NCBI GenBank assembly: GCA_004022145.1
Contig: RCNU01000002.1
Reading direction: 5' to 3' (one strand)
DNA length: 64,000 nucleotides
Source of the DNA: Paecilomyces variotii
Taxonomy: Eukaryota
In this document: positions 9,514 through 20,792 of the stretch, one piece after another
Layout of the letters: every line of letters begins with the position of its first letter
Position numbering within the stretch: position 1 is the stretch's first letter
Position numbers and translations under genes: made by a program
The notes under the pieces: generated by a model
What the model was told of the DNA's origin: nothing
Seen by the model: the letters and a program-made list of their open reading frames with translations, nothing else
Database searches by the model: none

Positions 9514-10029
9514 AAAGGTTTTATGTTTCCCGTTGCGAATACTCTCATGAGACACATTGCGGCGGTTGAACCCTCAGCGGTCGTCAACATGTAGGGTGTA
9601 TCGAAGGTTCTGGTCTTCCATGCGACTATGTTTTTTCTCATTTTTCGGTTCCGGAGTCTGGTAGTTCTGCGTGCATTTAGGACTTGTGAGTCCTATTTAG
9701 TGGCGTCATCTAGGCCCCAGATTGGCCTTTATAGATCGTGCTTTCCATAGCTCTGTCAAAATCCGACGCGATGTATCTAAAATTTGTCCTATGGCATCTT
9801 TTTGTCTTTCTGTACACAGGCCTTTCCAGAGTGTACAGTCTCTCAGATCCTGAGATGAAAATATAATGAAAAAAGGAATTGATTTGACATCTTTAAATGT
9901 CAAATATTTGCATTATTTGCATTTTATCATTTCATTTCGCTCCAGAATGTACCACGTACATACAATTCCCTACCGGAAGTCATTAAATTCTCGCCCGTAT
10001 CTGGGTCGCCACGGTTGAATAATAAATAC

Positions 10030-10440
10030 CTAGCCACCACCGGACTATCAACATCGTCGATTCCAGCAGCCGGATTCCTCGCAAAACCCTCCCTCGAACT
10101 CTGCAAGAGGTTCAAACGCCACCTCACGAGGACAGAGACAGCATGATAATAGATGTCTCAGTTGGTGGGGGAGTCGCCAACGAGAAGAGGACCGACGAGC
10201 ACGGCGATGGCACGACGTCAGCGACGGCCGCAAATTGCTACTAACTATAACTAGACCATCTCTGACAACAAAGTTAATAGATAGCGAGTATATACTATAG
10301 GATTAGTTAATTAGCTATTCTTCTTACAAACCGAGACACATTAGCCAAGAGACAAAGGCGCATTCTAAAAGCTAATCTCGAGGACGAGGATAGGTAGACA
10401 AGGCCAAGTAGAAGACGGTTACAGAATACATTGATTTGAT
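10030..10440 (+). other. Degenerate, TpA-rich coding-like relic (possible RIP-mutated repeat remnant)
   Basis: One frame reads open from about 10035 (..TPPHEDRDSMIIDVSVGGGVANEKR..), hits six TAA/TAG/TGA stops in 10242-10310 where TpA is visibly dense, then resumes (LAILLTNRDTLAKRQRRILKANLEDEDR). No TIR/LTR or transposase motif recognised. Confidence 0.3.
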
Positions 10441-10780
10441 CGTGAGGACGTTTAGGCTTGTAGACGATTTCACGTGTACTCTGCAATCGAAGGAGGGGGG
10501 GAAAGGTCTGCCAGAGTCTGGGGTGCTCCTTCACATACCAACGATGCGTCACTCTTCTACCCACATACAATCACTCCTTTTCACTTCACTTTCAGATCTT
10601 CTTGCTACCAGACCACTATCATTGTCATAAAGATAGCCTCTTCTTGAATAGTCTGAATGACTTTCTCTGTCTCCGGAATAGAGAGAAATATTTCATACTC
10701 TATCACTTTCGGCCCAGAGGGCTGGTGTTCTCCCTTCTCAATCACTGGATCTATCTCTGTCCGTAACAAAAATCATCAAC

Positions 10781-11529
10781 ATGCATTAAAAGAAACGAGA
10801 ATGCAATGAGAAAGCCCTTAGATGTGATGCCATCAGAGAGGTAAGTAACCGTTTTCTTAATCTAGCATACCGAATTCGTCTAGATTTCCTTTGCTGCCTA
10901 GACTAACTCCGTCTACAGAAGTGGAATGTGGTCGTCCCAAGACGAGGCAGTTATATCCTCCCAAAGAAAGAATCCTAAGTCCAGACGACGTCGACATAAA
11001 CTCCAGGAAGAGATTCATCGGAAACAAGGACGGTATGAGTCTCTTAGAACGACTCGATCGCATCGAGTCAGAACTCGAAAGACAGAAATCCGAAATCAAG
11101 CACCTGCAGTCTACGAACGACATAATCATTCTTCGTGCAGCCACTCTCGATGACTGGAGTGGACAAAAAGTCTCAGAATGAAAAAGCATTATGATCAAAT
11201 TTAGGAGGACTGGTATAACGGGCCTTGATAATTTGATGTCTTGTATGACCAAATCACTCCCGGTAGGCAATTATACCTTGGTACGTATTCCAAGTGCTTG
11301 GGACTTTTATAAAGCCAGCTTTTGGGATTTCAAAGGTCATTTATTGGTACATCGCGACGCGATAAATCCTATGGGCGTAAAGTATGTACATGTACAAAAA
11401 TTCTCTCCAAATGAGGGAAGAACAGAGTGGGAGATGCGACTGGGAGAAAAGAAATGCAGGAGTTATCCGTACCATTGTCACAGGCCCGGTAAACTATTAT
11501 TCCGGAGCATGATAACTGAACGTCTATAG
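10781..11529 (+). pseudogene. Probable pseudogene of an unknown coiled-coil protein
   Basis: ATG in CAAC-ATG context at 10781 with TAA at codon 3; canonical intron GTAAGT(10841)..CTAAC..CAG(10918); ORFs 10891-11181 and 11191-11529 share a frame and are split by one TGA (11179-11181); heptad-like LLERLDRIESELERQKSEIKHL. Confidence 0.35.
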
Positions 11530-11669
11530 AGTAAATGACCCGTTTTCCACATACAAGAAGAGCGTCTCTATACTTGTTTCGTCGCATTATGGATGATGTT
11601 CACACATGGTGGGTTCAAGCAGCCGATATGAGGCCTTCGAAACGCTCGTTCTACTAAGTGGTGGACCTC

Positions 11670-13811
11670 TCAGTTTGCACCCGGACCTGACAAGATTGTC
11701 CGTACGACCATACGTTTTCGGCCTTCTTCCCGTACATGTGGTCGTGGTGTAACATCTTTGATGTGACCAGAACCTGGCGTGTAGGCAGTTCTGCGGGGTA
11801 TAGAGGCCTGCTCGGCGAGGTGAGCACCCGGCTGCGTGGGGGAGAAAGCCAGTTTCTCTGGTGTTTCGTGAGGGGCTTGGGATGCCTGTTCGTTTTGATA
11901 TAGCTGAGATACCATCGTCTTCAGTCGTGTGATTTCCTCTCTCAGTGCGTGCAGTTCTTCGCTGGAAGTAGTTGGAATACTGGAAACCATTACTTCAGCG
12001 CTGGGTACATTGACTGACGGTGCCCTCTTCCCGTCGACTGCGTTCCTCTTCTCTCCAGATTGGCATGCCTCGTTTATTTCATCCTCGACCAAAGCCGCGA
12101 ACGAGGAGCATTTTTCTGCTATATTTCGGTGCTGGAACGGCTCCCTTGAAATTTCAGCATCAGCGTTCCGCCACCGCTGGAAGGCAGGGTCGAAATCTGC
12201 AGAAATGTCATGCTGTCTGCGAGCTGCATTCCAGTCGAAACCGCTCCTTACAGCTGCCGCAATAAGAGTAGCAGAGACATCTTCTTGCGCGCAAGAATCG
12301 CAAAAGTGCACCATGTGTACAATTAAGCGCTCAATGCGTCTGGGTGGATGAGAGGTCGAAGACAGCATAAAGGCCACGGCCCTCTTCAATACATGTCGAC
12401 CTTTCTCCCAATTTTTCCTGATAGTGTAGAATCTCAAGAACGAACATAGGGTACTGAAGTCGTCCGTGAAACCAGCCGCCCGCCAAGCCTGCATCCAAGC
12501 CTCTGCTCTGTCAGGCTGGTCAAAACGGAGCGCTGCAGCAATAAGAGTACCATACATAACCGGATTGGAGGCGGCTACGGGAGGGACCACAATCTCTATT
12601 CCATTAATCACCTTCGACTTCCAACGAGCTGAAGGAGGGATATTGGCAGGGTATCCTTGTCCCATCAGCATTTCGAGAAACAAGTCGAAGTTTTTGAGAT
12701 CTTTCGATTTTCTAAAGTATGTCAGAACCGAAACGATCACCGAGGGGTTTAGTTCGAATTGATTTGGTAGCATTGTCCGCAGAACGAGATCAACCAGGTC
12801 ATTTTTGCGCGTTTTCGTAAAAGCCATGATCATCACCTGAAAGGCTCTAGGGCGATCCGGCTCCTTGCTTGCCATCAGATTATCCGAAATCCGTACAAGC
12901 AGTTCCGGCAAAGGCATTCTATTGCTTAGGTAAAGGTTGATATCATCCCGAAGGATCTCATCGAGCTTGCAACGCTCCGACCGCAGTTCGTTAAATGCTC
13001 GGATATGCATATCTTTTGCGAGATCGTCGAAAGCTTCATCCTCTCTGTATCTAAGAGCATAGATTCTGTTCTGCGTCATCCGCAATTGAGCCATCAGCTC
13101 TGTGACGTTTAATTTTGGTAAAGCCGAATCTGTCGGATAATCGAGAGGCAGGCCGGAATAGTTGGGAGCAACAACAGGGCGCAGCAATAACCGGATAGCT
13201 AACTGTCTCAATGCTAGTTTTTGAATTGCTTTAGTCCGAAGGGGATCGCCAGCTGTCCACGGCGTCTCGAAAGAAGTGAATATGTCATTTTCTTCCTCCC
13301 CATCTTCGTCAAACAGTGTCTCCTCCGCCTCCGGTTCGGGAGGAACCGCCGCTTCCGTAGTCTGAGATGGAAGCGATTCTTCGAATTTGTCGAATTGACG
13401 CTCCAGCGTGTATTTCTCTGGTCGCGGCGATTCAATGTTTGTTCGGAATCCAGCTGCAGTGCTGTATTGTCGTACTTGCATTTGCCGAGAAAACTGTCCG
13501 TTTCTCTTGCGTGAAGAAAGGGCCTCCAATATCCGTTTTTCCTCATCTACCAGTTCATTCACCTCCTCTTTCACTGCCGCTATTTTCTCTTCCCATTCAT
13601 GTCGACGCTTGTCCTTGACCCGCGCATCGGCTAATGCAGCTGCCGCAAAGATACTCGAGTATAGTGCTGTCACTGAATTTCCAATTCGGAGCCGTCGACG
13701 GCTCGCAGCAGTTGCTGCTCGTGAACTGATGCCGTTGGCAGCCGTACTTAGACAGGAAACGCAGCGACAGGCCGACTGCGACGAAGCGGCTCGAGACCAC
13801 AGACCCTGCAT
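11670..13811 (-). CDS. Probable mitochondrial PPR-like/alpha-solenoid protein
   Basis: Single long ORF; likely start MQGLWSR at 13811 with an Arg/Ser/Ala-rich presequence-like N-terminus; PPR-like helical segments (NPVMYGTLIAAALRFDQPDRAEAWMQ; FSTLCSFLRFYTIRKNWEKGRHVLK). Confidence 0.65.
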   Translation of the reverse strand: MQGLWSRAASSQSACRCVSCLSTAANGISSRAATAASRRRLRIGNSVTALYSSIFAAAALADARVKDKRRHEWEEKIAAVKEEVNELVDEEKRILEALSSRKRNGQFSRQMQVRQYSTAAGFRTNIESPRPEKYTLERQFDKFEESLPSQTTEAAVPPEPEAEETLFDEDGEEENDIFTSFETPWTAGDPLRTKAIQKLALRQLAIRLLLRPVVAPNYSGLPLDYPTDSALPKLNVTELMAQLRMTQNRIYALRYREDEAFDDLAKDMHIRAFNELRSERCKLDEILRDDINLYLSNRMPLPELLVRISDNLMASKEPDRPRAFQVMIMAFTKTRKNDLVDLVLRTMLPNQFELNPSVIVSVLTYFRKSKDLKNFDLFLEMLMGQGYPANIPPSARWKSKVINGIEIVVPPVAASNPVMYGTLIAAALRFDQPDRAEAWMQAWRAAGFTDDFSTLCSFLRFYTIRKNWEKGRHVLKRAVAFMLSSTSHPPRRIERLIVHMVHFCDSCAQEDVSATLIAAAVRSGFDWNAARRQHDISADFDPAFQRWRNADAEISREPFQHRNIAEKCSSFAALVEDEINEACQSGEKRNAVDGKRAPSVNVPSAEVMVSSIPTTSSEELHALREEITRLKTMVSQLYQNEQASQAPHETPEKLAFSPTQPGAHLAEQASIPRRTAYTPGSGHIKDVTPRPHVREEGRKRMVVRTILSGPGAN

Positions 13812-16898: not shown

Positions 16899-17904
16899 AT
16901 GTCTTGCCCTCAATGCTTCAGTGGCTCAGTGCACGACGGCACTCCCAAGGGAAAGGTTGTCAAACTTCATGGGCTGGATGCGTACGTCTCCGAGCCTGAA
17001 GAAGGCAAGCCAGTCAAGGGAATCATCATTATTATCCCCGATGCGTTCGGATGGGAGTTTCCAAACAACAGAATCCTAGCGGACCACTATGCGGAGAAGG
17101 GCAGCTATAAAGTGTACCTGCCGGAATTCATGAACGGTAAGCTTCGTTACTGATCCCAGTGATATATGTACCCCGGTAGTAAACCGCGCATATCTGGTTG
17201 CGCATTGGACCCATGTAATCACGGATACTAATTTCTTACGATAGGAAATTCCGCACCTCACTGGATCCCAGGGATGCTGTACGGTCTCTTCGACACCGGT
17301 TCACTGTGGTCGTGGCTGCTTAAGCCGTAAGCGTCTCTCACTGACTCTTCAGAATCCATGTATGCTGACTATTTATGTCAGATACCAAGTCGGCTGGCTT
17401 ATTTATGGCATGGTCCCCTTTGTGATTCGCAATAGCTTCCCCAAGACCTGGCCGATCGTCAAGGATTTCTTCACTGCTGTGAGGGAGAATGAAGGCGCTC
17501 ACCTTCCCATCGGCGCTGCCGGTTTCTGCTGGGGCGCCAAGCACACGGTGAATTTGGCCCAGGGCTACGAAAGCAACGGGAAGCCTCTCCTTGACGCCGG
17601 TTTCACGGCTCATCCAAGCAACTTGGAGATCCCTGCTGAGATCGAGAAGATCAAGAAGCCCGTCAGCTTTGCAATTGGTGACAAGGATATCCAGGTCAAG
17701 GTGCCACAGATTGAGCAAATCCGACAGATTGTCGAGGCCAAGCCTGATGGTGAGAAAGGAGAAGTCAGGACCTACTATGGCGCAGGTCATGGATTCGCCG
17801 TTCGTGCGGATCATATCTTGAAGGATGCGGAGCGACAGGCGGAGGAAGCGGAAGACCAGGCTATTGACTGGTTCAACCGCCAATTCCAGGGAATTTCTTA
17901 CTAA
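16899..17904 (+). CDS. Dienelactone hydrolase family protein
   Basis: MSCPQCFSG..PKG, IPDAFGW..NNRILAD, GFCWGAK (nucleophile Cys), GDKD, GHGFAVR; two introns (about 17137-17245 and 17327-17381). Confidence 0.9.
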
Positions 17905-18140
17905 GGAGTTACGTTTTACTCCTGGATGTAATGTTTTGGTCACTAATAATCGGAGGGGTGGAGGCTAGGAGGACGATACTAGTATCAGCTACGAGCTTCA
18001 TATATTGGATACGCGATGAGAATGATAGTCGCTAGGTTATTTGAATTCTTTATGCTTTTAACATCGAACTATCTTCAGACTTCCTAGCTGCGGTAATTGA
18101 TTCCTCATGGTATAAATCAGCAGCATGACTAGTCCACCCG

Positions 18141-19964
18141 TTAAAAGTATTGTTGGCCTCTCCTCTGCCTATCACTTTTCGAACTAGCATACATGCCTGC
18201 TTTGGCCGTCTTGCTCCCCATCCTCACCAGACCGACAAGATGATGAACACCTGCAAGAACGCCATCGATTACCTGGACGTCCTCACCTACAGCTTCCTCG
18301 ACGGCAGGTTTCAGCATGGTCATTCCAACGCATCCCAGTGTCAATGTATCCGCTCCTTTGGCTACCAAGTCTTTGGCAACACCGCACATGATATCGAGAA
18401 CTTCTTTCTGAGGCTTGCTCTCAAGCTCCAGAACCCCCAGTCCACAGCTTCCAACACCGACACAGAAGTCACCGAAGCCGTAGTGCCTGATCGCATCCTC
18501 CGCCATTGGTTTTGATCTGTTCGATGTCGCAATCATTCCGAAGCGATTACCCAGCGTCCGCGCCGCGAAGAGACTTGCTTCCATGATCCCGATCACTGGC
18601 TTGTCTAGCTCCTCTCTCAGAGGCCTGATCAGAGAATGGTCGCTGTAGCAGGCCACGAGGAAAGCATCGTACTTGTCAGCCATGGGTATGATAGCCCGCA
18701 CAGCTGCCGCAGTAGACATGACACTGTCCATATGGCCTTCAATGGCGGTTGGCGCTGGAGTAGGTGCAGTGAAGCCATGAACTTCCACGTCTGGAGGTAG
18801 GGTTGGCTGAAGCATCTTAACGCAATTATCTGTCATGAACTTCGTCGCATTCGGGTTACAGAGAAGAATACGGATCTTCTTGCTTTCCTTAGTAGACGGC
18901 GATCCAGAACCAACAATGACATATTCTCCAGTATTAGGACTCGCGGATCCGTCTCTTTCGTTCAGCTTTGGAGGCTCAATGACTCCAGTCTGAGAAGTTA
19001 TCCTCCCATAATGCTCAATACGTCGATGTCTTGCGAAGTCGAATGTTCTCGTTTTCCCCGGCCTGCACTGATCGAGATCACAATCCGCAATGATCACTTC
19101 ATCATCCTTCGTCTTGCTCTCTGCGATGATCCGGCCCTCGGGATCGGTAATGCAAGATCCGGCTATCAAGTCATACTTCCCATCATCCAAGCCACATCTC
19201 GCAGCACTGACTGAGAATGTGGCATTGGTGTACGAATGCGCCTGCATGGAAAGCTTATGTTGGAAGATCGCCGTACGTTCTGCCTCCTCGGGGGATTCGT
19301 CTGCTGAAGAACCCCAGAGTTCAGGAGCCCATCCGGCGGTATTGTAACCACATAGGACGACTTCCACGCCTTGAAGGCCCAGAACACGCCATGACTCTGC
19401 CCACCGGCGGTCATTACAGATCATCATTCCGAAGATAGGATCCCCACGTTCGGGAGGGGATGTTGTCAAGTCAGGTACGCGGAAGGCTTGCCATCCTAGG
19501 TTTCCTGGCTTGAAATATCTCTTCTCCAGTTGATTTATGGCGTTGGGATCCGGCCAAGGCTCAAAGTCTCCTGGGAGATGGATCTTGCGATACTTCGAGA
19601 TGATAGAGCCCGTCTTAGCATGGTAGTAGATGCAGGTATTGTAATGCTCGCTGTCATCTGTCGCTTCGGCGAATCCCACGCAAATGTCAACTGCTAGCTG
19701 CTGTGCTTTATCGAACAAGGCTTTCGTGTTGGGAGCCGTCCGAATATCTCCGTGCTCAAACCACGACTCCAGTTCCTCTTCATCCGCGAAAAAGTATCGC
19801 GGAAAGAATGTTGTGAAAGCCGTCTCTGGGAAAACAACTAGCTGTGCGCCCTGCGATGCAGCATCATCCAGAAGCTTGAGCATTCGAGATAGAGTCTTCT
19901 CGCGGGGATCTGTAAGATGGGTAGAGCCCATCTGGGCCGCTGCGATGCGTATGATTCGAGGCAT
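18141..19964 (-). CDS. Fusion protein: N-carbamoyl-D-amino-acid amidohydrolase (nitrilase superfamily) + hydantoin/allantoin racemase (Asp/Glu/hydantoin racemase family)
   Basis: Intronless 607-aa ORF. aa 1-325: FPE47, YRK127IHLPG, LEKRYF, MIC183NDRRW, GYNT, FDFARHRRIEHYG. aa 363-607: ILLCNPN, DAFLVAC439YSDH, PVIGIMEAS, LTLGC545VGM, VIDGV. Confidence 0.88.
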   Translation of the reverse strand: MPRIIRIAAAQMGSTHLTDPREKTLSRMLKLLDDAASQGAQLVVFPETAFTTFFPRYFFADEEELESWFEHGDIRTAPNTKALFDKAQQLAVDICVGFAEATDDSEHYNTCIYYHAKTGSIISKYRKIHLPGDFEPWPDPNAINQLEKRYFKPGNLGWQAFRVPDLTTSPPERGDPIFGMMICNDRRWAESWRVLGLQGVEVVLCGYNTAGWAPELWGSSADESPEEAERTAIFQHKLSMQAHSYTNATFSVSAARCGLDDGKYDLIAGSCITDPEGRIIAESKTKDDEVIIADCDLDQCRPGKTRTFDFARHRRIEHYGRITSQTGVIEPPKLNERDGSASPNTGEYVIVGSGSPSTKESKKIRILLCNPNATKFMTDNCVKMLQPTLPPDVEVHGFTAPTPAPTAIEGHMDSVMSTAAAVRAIIPMADKYDAFLVACYSDHSLIRPLREELDKPVIGIMEASLFAARTLGNRFGMIATSNRSKPMAEDAIRHYGFGDFCVGVGSCGLGVLELESKPQKEVLDIMCGVAKDLVAKGADTLTLGCVGMTMLKPAVEEAVGEDVQVIDGVLAGVHHLVGLVRMGSKTAKAGMYASSKSDRQRRGQQYF

Positions 19965-20037
19965 CTTGCTGGACCGTAAATAGAGGGTTTTCTGAGACCT
20001 AATCCGATACCCCGTTTATACTTCAGAGATCCACCGG

Positions 20038-20230
20038 ATATATATACTTGAGCAAGGCTAAGTTGTGGTGCTGATAGACGGATCGGCCGATATCCTTATC
20101 AGCTTATCGGGCGACGATCCATTCGCAAAATTCCTCGATATGTCCTTATCACATTTGTAGCGGGGGAAAGGGTTAGTTTCTATGAGCAACTGGAAGGGTT
20201 CGTAACTAACGACTGAGGTGATATCTTATC
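20038..20230 (-). promoter_or_regulatory. Cluster of GATAAG (GATA-factor, AreA/NIT2-type) sites plus TATA-like element upstream of the carbamoylase-racemase gene
   Basis: CTTATC on + (GATAAG on the gene strand) at 20095, 20103, 20145 and 20225; further GATA cores at 20073, 20089 and 20137; ATATATATA at about 20038-20046; ATG at 19964. Confidence 0.6.
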
Positions 20231-20792
20231 AGGTAAAGTTCTAGTTAGTCGATTTAGTGTTGGAAAGCAACTTGGAGTTAACCACGACGTGGATGCCTTG
20301 CCTTTTATGCAAAATGCGATTAGGAGCAAGCATATTGAGAAAAACTGATGCTCTATGAGCTGTATTTATTGAAAGACCGCCGCACCTGCACGTTCTCGGT
20401 CCTACTGCACTGTGTCGAATCCTAAATGGCATGGAAACATGGTCTAGGATACCAAAGAACCTGCTGCAGACGGATGACTGACAGATCACCTGCACGTGCG
20501 CTTTGTACACCGACACACTGCTGTTCATCCAACCTGTAAGACATATTTTGAGCATGTACTTCTCCGTCGATTGTTGAATACAATTGCATTTATGGATATA
20601 TGTTCGCAATACGCACAACGATCAATGCCAGATAGGGTAGTATATTTAAGCAGATAAGAGTTCGTGTCAAAGATGCTTCGCCCAAAAAAGAGATGTTCGC
20701 CACTGTCACAATATGCAACACCACTTAGCCTGGGAATCAGTAATCAGAGTAAGATCCGCTAGAAACGAGAGTATAATGATATGGCTAGAAAT

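Follow-up and report, generated by a model that had tools for sequence, protein, structure and literature searches.

The gene described here lies on the minus strand of a 64,000-nucleotide stretch of Paecilomyces variotii DNA (contig RCNU01000002.1, assembly GCA_004022145.1), hereafter called the window. Its 607-residue product joins an N-terminal carbon–nitrogen hydrolase domain of the N-carbamoyl-D-amino-acid hydrolase (D-carbamoylase) type to a C-terminal domain of the allantoin/hydantoin racemase type (Table 1). The original prediction, made from the DNA sequence alone, had described a single intronless open reading frame (ORF) with two complete domains, and this description was borne out by the ORF listing and translation, by Pfam and by joint-free contigs from RNA libraries. 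The frame starts from the first ATG; read from stop to stop it covers 18141..20015 (-), which adds only 17 codons upstream of that ATG. A P. variotii protein matches the product along its full length (100%) at 99% identity.

Table 1. Features of the fusion gene, in window positions.
Feature	Position	Strand	Basis
Intronless coding sequence of the fusion (607 aa and a stop codon)	18141..19964	-	ORF, translation, homologue, RNA-library contigs
D-carbamoylase-type CN-hydrolase domain, N-terminal, residues 1–334	18963..19964	-	Pfam, phmmer against PDB, Foldseek, conservation
Inter-domain linker, Ser/Pro/Gly-rich, about residues 335–362	18879..18962	-	Conservation, pLDDT, dN
Allantoin/hydantoin-racemase-type domain, C-terminal, residues 363–607	18141..18878	-	Pfam, PDB search, conservation
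Probable 5' untranslated region	19965..20050	-	Depth drop in run X1; a hint

Transcript and domains of the fusion gene

The contigs of four public runs were aligned to positions 17900–20300 of the window. Two of the runs are metatranscriptome RNA libraries from a related strain (95–99% alike), and in these single contigs spanned 18286–19940 and 17900–19506. No splice joint was seen across either domain or the linker in the contigs of the four runs, so neither an intron nor an interruption at the linker was indicated. Separate transcripts for the two halves, which would have argued for two genes, were also considered; the RNA-library contigs ran unbroken over both domains. Run X1, which has the same species label and is RNA by guess only, gave a contig at a depth of 622 over 17900–20050 and a depth of 4 beyond 20050, a hint that the apparent 5' end of the fusion transcript lies near 20050. 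Contigs cannot prove transcript ends, and a full-length fusion mRNA is accordingly well supported, but not proven.

The N-terminal domain matched Pfam CN_hydrolase (PF00795) at residues 6–302 (E 1.4e-45). In a phmmer search of the PDB, the best matches were all N-carbamoyl-D-amino-acid hydrolases, with E-values of 2.6e-73 to 2.7e-65 over residues 1–328, and the next branch of the nitrilase superfamily appeared at 1.4e-15. A grouping with the beta-ureidopropionases, which had been named as the outcome that would speak against a D-carbamoylase, was not observed: the Drosophila enzyme (2vhh) matched at E 3.4e-6. With an AlphaFold2 model as the query, Foldseek returned D-carbamoylases at ranks 1–19 (E 2e-32 to 1.5e-29, 39–43% identity), with template modelling (TM) scores, normalised to the target, of 0.84–0.87 to the solved enzymes. 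By sequence and predicted fold, the N-terminal domain is thus closer to characterised D-carbamoylases than to any other nitrilase branch, in agreement with the original prediction.

The motifs quoted in that prediction were all found at the residues it gave: E47, K127, C183 in ICNDRRW, LEKRYF and GYNT in the N-terminal half, and NPN at 370–372, C439 in VACYSDH and C545 in LGCVGM in the C-terminal half. Residues E47, K127, E147 and C183 (codon 19416–19418) align with the catalytic residues of D-carbamoylases, where E147 is the counterpart of what we take to be their second catalytic Glu, Glu146 in Agrobacterium/Pseudomonas numbering. These four, and the carboxylate-binding residues N184, R186 and R187, at the places of the substrate-binding Asn173, Arg175 and Arg176, were present in 121/121 fusions, and the run C183-N184-D185-R186-R187 was invariant in the same 121 fusions, in 15/15 stand-alone fungal homologues and in 23/23 bacterial homologues. 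An excerpt of PMC11503299 gives the D-carbamoylase triad as Glu47/Lys127/Cys172 and the ligand contacts as Asn173, Arg176 and His144. The solved bacterial enzymes (EC 3.5.1.77; 6le2 and 6lei from Nitratireductor indicus, 1erz and 1fo6 from Agrobacterium) have the same fold and are 40–42% identical to the fungal domain; the catalytic Glu, Lys and Cys, the second Glu and the Cys-Asn-Asp-Arg-Arg stretch are common to both, and the homology continues through the tail to residue ≈328. Unlike them, the fungal protein is fused to a racemase, has Gln in place of His144 and carries inserted loops after residues ≈160 and ≈210.

In a quick tree of N-terminal domains (65 rows), all fungal carbamoylase domains formed one clade (Shimodaira–Hasegawa-like approximate likelihood ratio test, SH-aLRT, 94), with the bacterial rows in a separate clade. 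Stand-alone fungal carbamoylases, of about 300–330 aa and 48–62% identical, were nested among the fusions. The outgroup consisted of five more distant CN-hydrolases, chosen without identification, on a branch 1.57 long. Our trees are quick or FastTree trees, rooted on this outgroup or at the midpoint, and their branching order is provisional.

The C-terminal domain matched Pfam Asp_Glu_race (PF01177) at residues 366–575 (E 2.1e-54). Its similarity to solved racemases begins at residue 364 and covers the full ≈230 aa. Among solved structures, the allantoin racemases 5lfd (E 1.4e-27) and 3qvj (E 2.4e-22) come closest, with glutamate racemases at E about 1e-6, which agrees with the racemase type first proposed. 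C439 (codon 18648–18650) and C545 (codon 18330–18332) align with the two cysteines of 3qvj that are changed to Ser in the mutant entry 3qvk, and they were retained in 121/121 and 120/121 fusions, respectively. The positions that mark the allantoin/hydantoin racemase subfamily are Asn/Asp12, Met17, Thr/Ser118 and Thr119 in KpAllR numbering (PMC12661438), mapped here through an offset of 2 between chain index and that numbering. The putative equivalents of Asn12, Met17 and Thr119 were retained as N372 in 121/121, M377 in 118/121 and T480 in 98/121 fusions. The fungal domain has in common with these racemases the NPN motif, both cysteine motifs and, by this mapping, apparently three of the four subfamily positions; it differs from them in having Ala at the putative place of Thr/Ser118 and in being placed C-terminal to a carbamoylase.

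Another fungal member of the same subfamily, with two catalytic cysteines, is the oxepinamide epimerase OpaE (PMC12661438). OpaE-like enzymes have hydrophobic pocket residues, whereas the window domain carries the polar Asn and Thr of ring-ureide racemases, and OpaE stands alone in a secondary-metabolite cluster, unlike the fused domain. The nearest stand-alone relatives of the C-terminal domain are also fungal, from Polychaeton (62% identity), Saitoella (49%) and Schizosaccharomyces octosporus (42%), the last named 'hydantoin racemase family protein'. The racemases that neighbour the closest bacterial carbamoylases are 28–34% identical to it, and the branch that carries them in the C-domain tree is 2.15 long. 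Judged from these comparisons, the racemase half is not derived from the sampled bacterial hyu-type racemases and belongs to a fungal 'hydantoin racemase family' lineage. The separate comparison of the two halves with their bacterial counterparts, proposed with the original prediction, thus placed the fungal N-terminal domains in one clade apart from the bacterial rows and left the racemase half outside the bacterial racemases sampled. Codon 546 (18327–18329), after the second catalytic Cys, is Val in the window strain and Ala in 120/121 fusion homologues; the related strain in the RNA-library contigs carries Ala.

The predicted Ser/Pro/Gly linker was found between the domains (Table 1) and is the least conserved part of the protein, with a mean column identity of 0.19 at residues 341–360 compared with 0.6–0.9 elsewhere (121 fusions). 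In the AlphaFold2 model, which had a mean predicted local distance difference test score (pLDDT) of 77.4 and a predicted TM score (pTM) of 0.51, pLDDT fell below 50 over residues 303–361. With this pTM and a low-confidence linker, no conclusion on contacts between the domains was drawn from the model.

Compared with the orthologue on a Thermoascus-like contig (L001), the N-terminal domain had a nonsynonymous divergence (dN) of 0.072 and a synonymous divergence (dS) of 2.16, and the C-terminal domain a dN of 0.123 with saturated dS; dN in the linker was 0.39. Strain differences in the coding sequence were synonymous in 22/31 cases and not in 9/31 (among the 40 listed of 65 differences). The low dN in both domains and the mostly synonymous strain differences indicate that both are maintained, and by this measure both domains are under purifying selection in the Paecilomyces/Thermoascus lineage, in which no hydantoinase is linked to the fusion. 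In an orthologue from a fungal metagenome (L017), the two domains are in different reading frames (ORFs 9986–11071 and 11083–11892); at 11029–11158 there is probably an intron, which sits in the linker, unlike the intronless window gene.

Distribution of the fusion and linkage to hydantoinase genes

How far the architecture extends had been left to a domain scan and an architecture search. These found both Pfam domains, and the best 120 near-length homologues were all fusions, of ≈590–660 aa and 64–99% identity, each with both domains. Their sources were Eurotiomycetes, Dothideomycetes, Sordariomycetes (Colletotrichum) and the basidiomycetes Neolentinus and Gloeophyllum. The 90% cluster of the P. 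variotii protein that is 99% identical counts 23 members and includes many P. variotii strains. Of the best 150 matches in an exhaustive HMMER search of 1.84 billion representatives, only one (at 50% clustering) was a full-length fusion and none was a longer, triple fusion. On the evidence of these sequences, the fusion architecture is widespread in fungi and not peculiar to the P. variotii genome.

A hydantoinase gene adjoins the fusion gene in several other fungi. In L017, in which the fusion is 66% identical to that of the window, a 486-aa gene lies divergently adjacent at a distance of 534 bp. Its product passes the NCBIfam model TIGR02033 (dihydropyrimidinase/D-hydantoinase; 415.8 bits, cut-off 393.25) and stays under the cut-off of the allantoinase model TIGR03178 (200.5 bits, cut-off 357.85); among solved structures it matches the yeast dihydropyrimidinase 2fty best (E 1.4e-114). 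A search with this protein showed that the fusion and a dihydropyrimidinase bear consecutive locus tags in Aspergillus terreus (HFD88_010637/010636), Diplodia seriata (SLS55_008934/008935), Colletotrichum jinshuiense (EsH8_III_001426/001427) and Aspergillus nanangensis (FE257_005704/005703). Matching two listings by hand, and not systematically, gave at least 12 more species for which the fusion and a dihydropyrimidinase were listed with a longest contig of equal size; among these are Gloeophyllum, Neolentinus, Saccharata, Phyllosticta, Penicilliopsis, Colletotrichum siamense and six Aspergillus species. A JGI contig of 12,564 bases was listed for both fusion P0004 and dihydropyrimidinase P0413.

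Stand-alone fungal carbamoylases are also paired with a dihydropyrimidinase, in L019, L032 and Bogoriella (M1820_002398/002397). In a FastTree of 50 dihydropyrimidinases, every fusion-linked copy fell in one starred clade of 22 rows, and the copies linked to stand-alone carbamoylases fell in another. The fungal dihydropyrimidinase homologues (P0406–P0526) comprise at least four well-supported paralogue groups, of which one accompanies the fusion and another the stand-alone carbamoylases. Two of these groups occur together in some fungi, such as Coleophoma; in Colletotrichum, the second type was seen in a species other than those that carry the fusion-linked type.

The original prediction had stated that the bacterial counterparts are separate genes in the hydantoin-utilisation (hyu) pathway, and we found them as such in hydantoinase-containing clusters. 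The closest prokaryotic carbamoylases, 38–52% identical, come from Alphaproteobacteria (among them Hyphomicrobiaceae, Acetobacteraceae, Tardiphaga, Bosea, Devosia) and Actinomycetota. In the bacterial locus L023, a carbamoylase gene (308 aa) is directly preceded by a racemase gene (244 aa), which is divergent from a dihydropyrimidinase gene (TIGR02033, 578.6 bits) whose product is 41% identical to that of L017; upstream are a DAO-family oxidoreductase, a GMC oxidoreductase and an aminotransferase. All three homologues were present in the fetched stretch in 9/47 prokaryotic genome loci (L060–L064, L066, L097, L099 and L101). No prokaryotic single-chain fusion was found among the 47 genome loci. 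Where prokaryotic loci matched residues 1–573 (four from metagenomes, three from genomes), the match fell into two separate stretches, racemase then carbamoylase. In L023 and L043 alone, translation or an ORF listing confirmed that these are neighbouring genes.

The alphaproteobacterial clusters (L023, L060–L064) thus contain the same three enzyme families as the fungal fusion and its hydantoinase, and in them, as in L017, the hydantoinase gene divergently adjoins the carbamoylase gene. The bacteria have three genes, with the racemase before the carbamoylase, whereas the fungi have two, with a fused chain that runs from carbamoylase to racemase. Since the order is reversed, an origin of the fusion by read-through of a transferred bacterial operon was ruled out.

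In the full-text literature, with subscription journals and supplements outside the scope, no account was found of a fungal carbamoylase–racemase fusion or of a fungal hydantoinase–carbamoylase pair. PMC5169069 describes many transfers of Asp_Glu_race genes into fungi, in a text that contains neither 'carbamoyl' nor a domain fusion, and PMC4782317 has a racemase-family gene only as an entry in an expression table. PMC13534542, considered for the term 'dihydropyrimidinase', was rejected, as the term occurs there in connection with an auxotrophy. Public names already reflect the domains, such as 'Putative carbon-nitrogen hydrolase, asp/Glu/hydantoin racemase' or 'carbon-nitrogen hydrolase'. The suggestion of an uncharacterised fungal enzyme stands as far as the full texts searched go, although the architecture itself is widespread and already domain-annotated in databases. 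The enzyme families and the logic of the pathway are known, and it is the fused two-gene fungal form that is uncharacterised. By its sequence, the window gene is an ordinary orthologue of these domain-annotated proteins that stands alone.

A candidate hydantoin-utilisation enzyme and alternative functions

The three enzymes of the 'hydantoinase process', used for the industrial production of D-amino acids, are known as separate proteins of bacteria, and their natural substrates are still debated. With moderate confidence, we favor the view that the fusion is a cytosolic bifunctional enzyme of a fungal counterpart to this hydantoin-utilisation route. The two-cysteine racemase domain at the C terminus would interconvert the enantiomers of a cyclic ureide of the 5-substituted hydantoin type, a dihydropyrimidinase/D-hydantoinase from a separate gene would open the ring of the D-form to yield an N-carbamoyl-D-amino acid, and the N-terminal Glu-Lys-Cys amidohydrolase domain would release the carbamoyl group as CO2 and NH3, allowing ring compounds to be used as a nitrogen source. 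We infer the activities, the substrates, the order of the steps and, for the window strain, the hydantoinase partner. The idea that the middle step is supplied from elsewhere, already present in the original prediction, gains from the hydantoinase gene that adjoins the fusion in other fungi.

Several observations weigh against this view. The fusion would combine the first and third steps of the route, which are not consecutive, and this would be an unusual reason for a fusion. As predicted, no hydantoinase homologue was found in the 64-kb window, either by tblastn with fungal and bacterial dihydropyrimidinases or by Pfam on 16 neighbouring ORFs, and the same searches gave no permease or regulator. 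Among ORFs of at least 170 aa in 7 fungal loci, likewise, no NCS1 permease or Zn2Cys6 regulator was seen linked to the fusion. The adjoining hydantoinase gene that characterises bacterial hyu-type clusters is present in L017 and the four fungi with consecutive tags; the window fusion is unlinked to any hydantoinase. Four Thermoascus-like (Eurotiales) metagenome loci, with a fusion 83% identical and in synteny with the window, also lack it, and only 1/12 fungal fusion loci examined as DNA (L017) had a hydantoinase in the available flanks. The only Paecilomyces dihydropyrimidinase found, in P. variotii No. 5 and P. lecythidis, is 62% identical to that of L017, lies on a contig other than that of the fusion and belongs to a paralogue group (5 rows, starred) different from the fusion-linked one; its 90% cluster consists of these two members only, so that none of the numerous P. 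variotii strains with the fusion is in it. Among the best 120 dihydropyrimidinases listed, the fusion-linked group had no representative from Paecilomyces or Thermoascus. This suggests that the fusion-linked type of hydantoinase is absent from Paecilomyces, and the fusion may have become uncoupled from a hydantoinase gene in the Paecilomyces/Thermoascus lineage and yet been strongly conserved.

The active sites also give some reason for caution. No NCBIfam equivalog cut-off was reached by the fusion (best, aguB, 101.5 bits against 410). The position of bacterial His144 is Gln145 in 121/121 fusions and 15/15 stand-alone fungal homologues, compared with His in 21/23 and Gln in 2/23 bacterial homologues, and the putative equivalent of Thr/Ser118 is Ala479 (A in 101, V in 17 and S in 3 of 121 fusions). 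Because of these two replacements, the specificity may differ from that of the bacterial enzymes, and together with the uncoupling in Thermoascaceae they keep any assignment of the substrate provisional.

Fusions usually join consecutive steps, and this would be the case here if the racemase domain acted on an open-chain substrate, converting N-carbamoyl-L- to N-carbamoyl-D-amino acids, or on the released D-amino acid, making the fusion self-sufficient without a hydantoinase. In keeping with such an activity, the Paecilomyces/Thermoascus lineage retains and expresses the gene, and selects strongly against changes in it, with no hydantoinase linked to it and no dihydropyrimidinase of the fusion-linked type among the best 120 listed; the apparent replacement of Thr/Ser118 by Ala would fit as well. 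We nevertheless consider it unlikely, since the C-terminal domain is much nearer to allantoin/hydantoin racemases than to glutamate racemases, appears to retain Asn12, Met17 and Thr119 of the ring-binding subfamily, and has a hydantoinase gene linked to the fusion in many other fungi. We know of no N-carbamoyl-amino-acid racemase in the Asp/Glu racemase family. A role in pyrimidine breakdown appears rather improbable. In that case, the N-terminal domain would be beta-ureidopropionase-like and, alongside a dihydropyrimidinase, act on N-carbamoyl-beta-amino acids derived from dihydrouracil or dihydrothymine, with the racemase domain acting on chiral 5-substituted dihydropyrimidines. The linked gene of L017 is indeed most like the pyrimidine-catabolic yeast enzyme 2fty and passes TIGR02033, a model for dihydropyrimidinases as well as D-hydantoinases, and the changes near the active site (His144 to Gln, the two loops) are specific to fungi. 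However, the N-terminal domain groups with D-carbamoylases and only remotely matches 2vhh, the five more distant CN-hydrolases sit on their long outgroup branch, the Asn-x-Arg-Arg that binds an alpha-carboxylate is invariant, and dihydrouracil is achiral, so that the main substrate would need no racemase.

A place in purine or ureide breakdown is similarly doubtful, if anything more so. Here the C-terminal domain would be an allantoin racemase, as proposed for yeast Dcg1, and the N-terminal domain would cleave an open-chain ureide, for instance allantoate or ureidoglycine, freeing ammonia rather than urea. The two best solved relatives of the C-terminal domain are allantoin racemases, and its nearest stand-alone relatives are members of the fungal 'hydantoin racemase family' (Polychaeton, Saitoella, S. 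octosporus). Passages of PMC3646786 and PMC13751858 term yeast DCG1 a probable allantoin racemase, by similarity only. Against this stands the conserved neighbour, which is a dihydropyrimidinase/hydantoinase and falls short of the allantoinase model, and no purine-catabolic gene was linked to the fusion in the window or in the 7 fungal loci scanned. To our knowledge, no D-carbamoylase-type enzyme takes part in ureide breakdown. Lastly, it is very improbable that the single ORF is accidental and yields two separate proteins through an internal start or processing at the linker. Contigs cannot reveal transcript ends, but the stretch that joins the domains has neither a stop codon nor a splice joint, the single chain recurs in each of the 120 best near-length homologues across fungal classes, and the linker stays in frame despite the drift of its sequence.

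The hydantoin-utilisation route and the open-chain activity might also both occur, in different lineages. We regard it as improbable, on a par with the open-chain activity itself, that an old two-gene 'hydantoinase process' module exists in Ascomycota and two Basidiomycota, and that the fusion works alone in Paecilomyces and Thermoascus, where the racemase would feed N-carbamoyl-L-amino acids to the carbamoylase domain. If this were true, it would be a racemase activity not described for the family, and the natural substrate of the module could show what D-hydantoinases and D-carbamoylases do in nature. More generally, a natural carbamoylase–racemase fusion is a ready-made scaffold for a bifunctional biocatalyst, and Aspergillus and Colletotrichum species, which carry the pair, are eukaryotes open to genetic work in which the ring compounds scavenged by the route could be studied. 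The gain for the window itself is smaller, its gene being an orthologue of many domain-annotated proteins and standing alone. Overall, the interpretation given in the original prediction is partly supported.

Neighbouring genes and other carbamoylase contexts

The neighbours of the fusion in the window all belong to housekeeping-type families; among the 16 ORFs, Pfam identified a DEAH helicase, a TYW2-type methyltransferase, a dienelactone hydrolase, a PROPPIN, a Kelch protein, a JmjC protein, a dual-specificity phosphatase and Mlh1. The dienelactone-hydrolase gene (16899–17904, +) lies between the fusion and the TYW2-type methyltransferase gene. The corresponding gap in the syntenic Thermoascus-like contig L001 (11816–12387) is ≈570 bp, and the dienelactone-hydrolase gene is seemingly absent from it.

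Five sites of the GATA-factor type (HGATAR) are grouped in 160 bp (20072–20231) just upstream of where the fusion transcript apparently starts. Groups of at least five in 200 bp occurred somewhere in 104/300 shuffled windows, and the real window has three such places. As chance clusters are this frequent, the sites were discounted as evidence for nitrogen regulation and are a weak hint only.

The two bacterial carbamoylases that share the fungal Gln have heterogeneous contexts and give no clue to a substrate: one (L059) neighbours an ABC transporter and a bicupin, and the other (L095) a LysR regulator, another amidohydrolase, TctC and a second CN-hydrolase. A D-carbamoylase homologue on the chromosome of an alphaproteobacterial metagenome-assembled genome (MAG) lies in a different cluster (L072, 2800–13000), with another Amidohydro_1 enzyme, a creatininase-family protein, an arylmalonate-decarboxylase-family protein (Asp/Glu racemase superfamily), a class IV aminotransferase, an HpcH aldolase, MmgE/PrpD and a 2-hydroxyacid dehydrogenase.

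Another natural fusion partner for the carbamoylase branch was seen in P0264, a bacterial protein of 718 aa from a Granulosicoccus MAG that is named diaminopropionate ammonia-lyase. In this protein, a D-carbamoylase-type domain, 45% identical to the N-terminal domain of the window protein, is fused to a pyridoxal phosphate (PLP)-dependent (PALP) domain, which hints that some members of the D-carbamoylase branch may act on ureido-diaminopropionate-like compounds.

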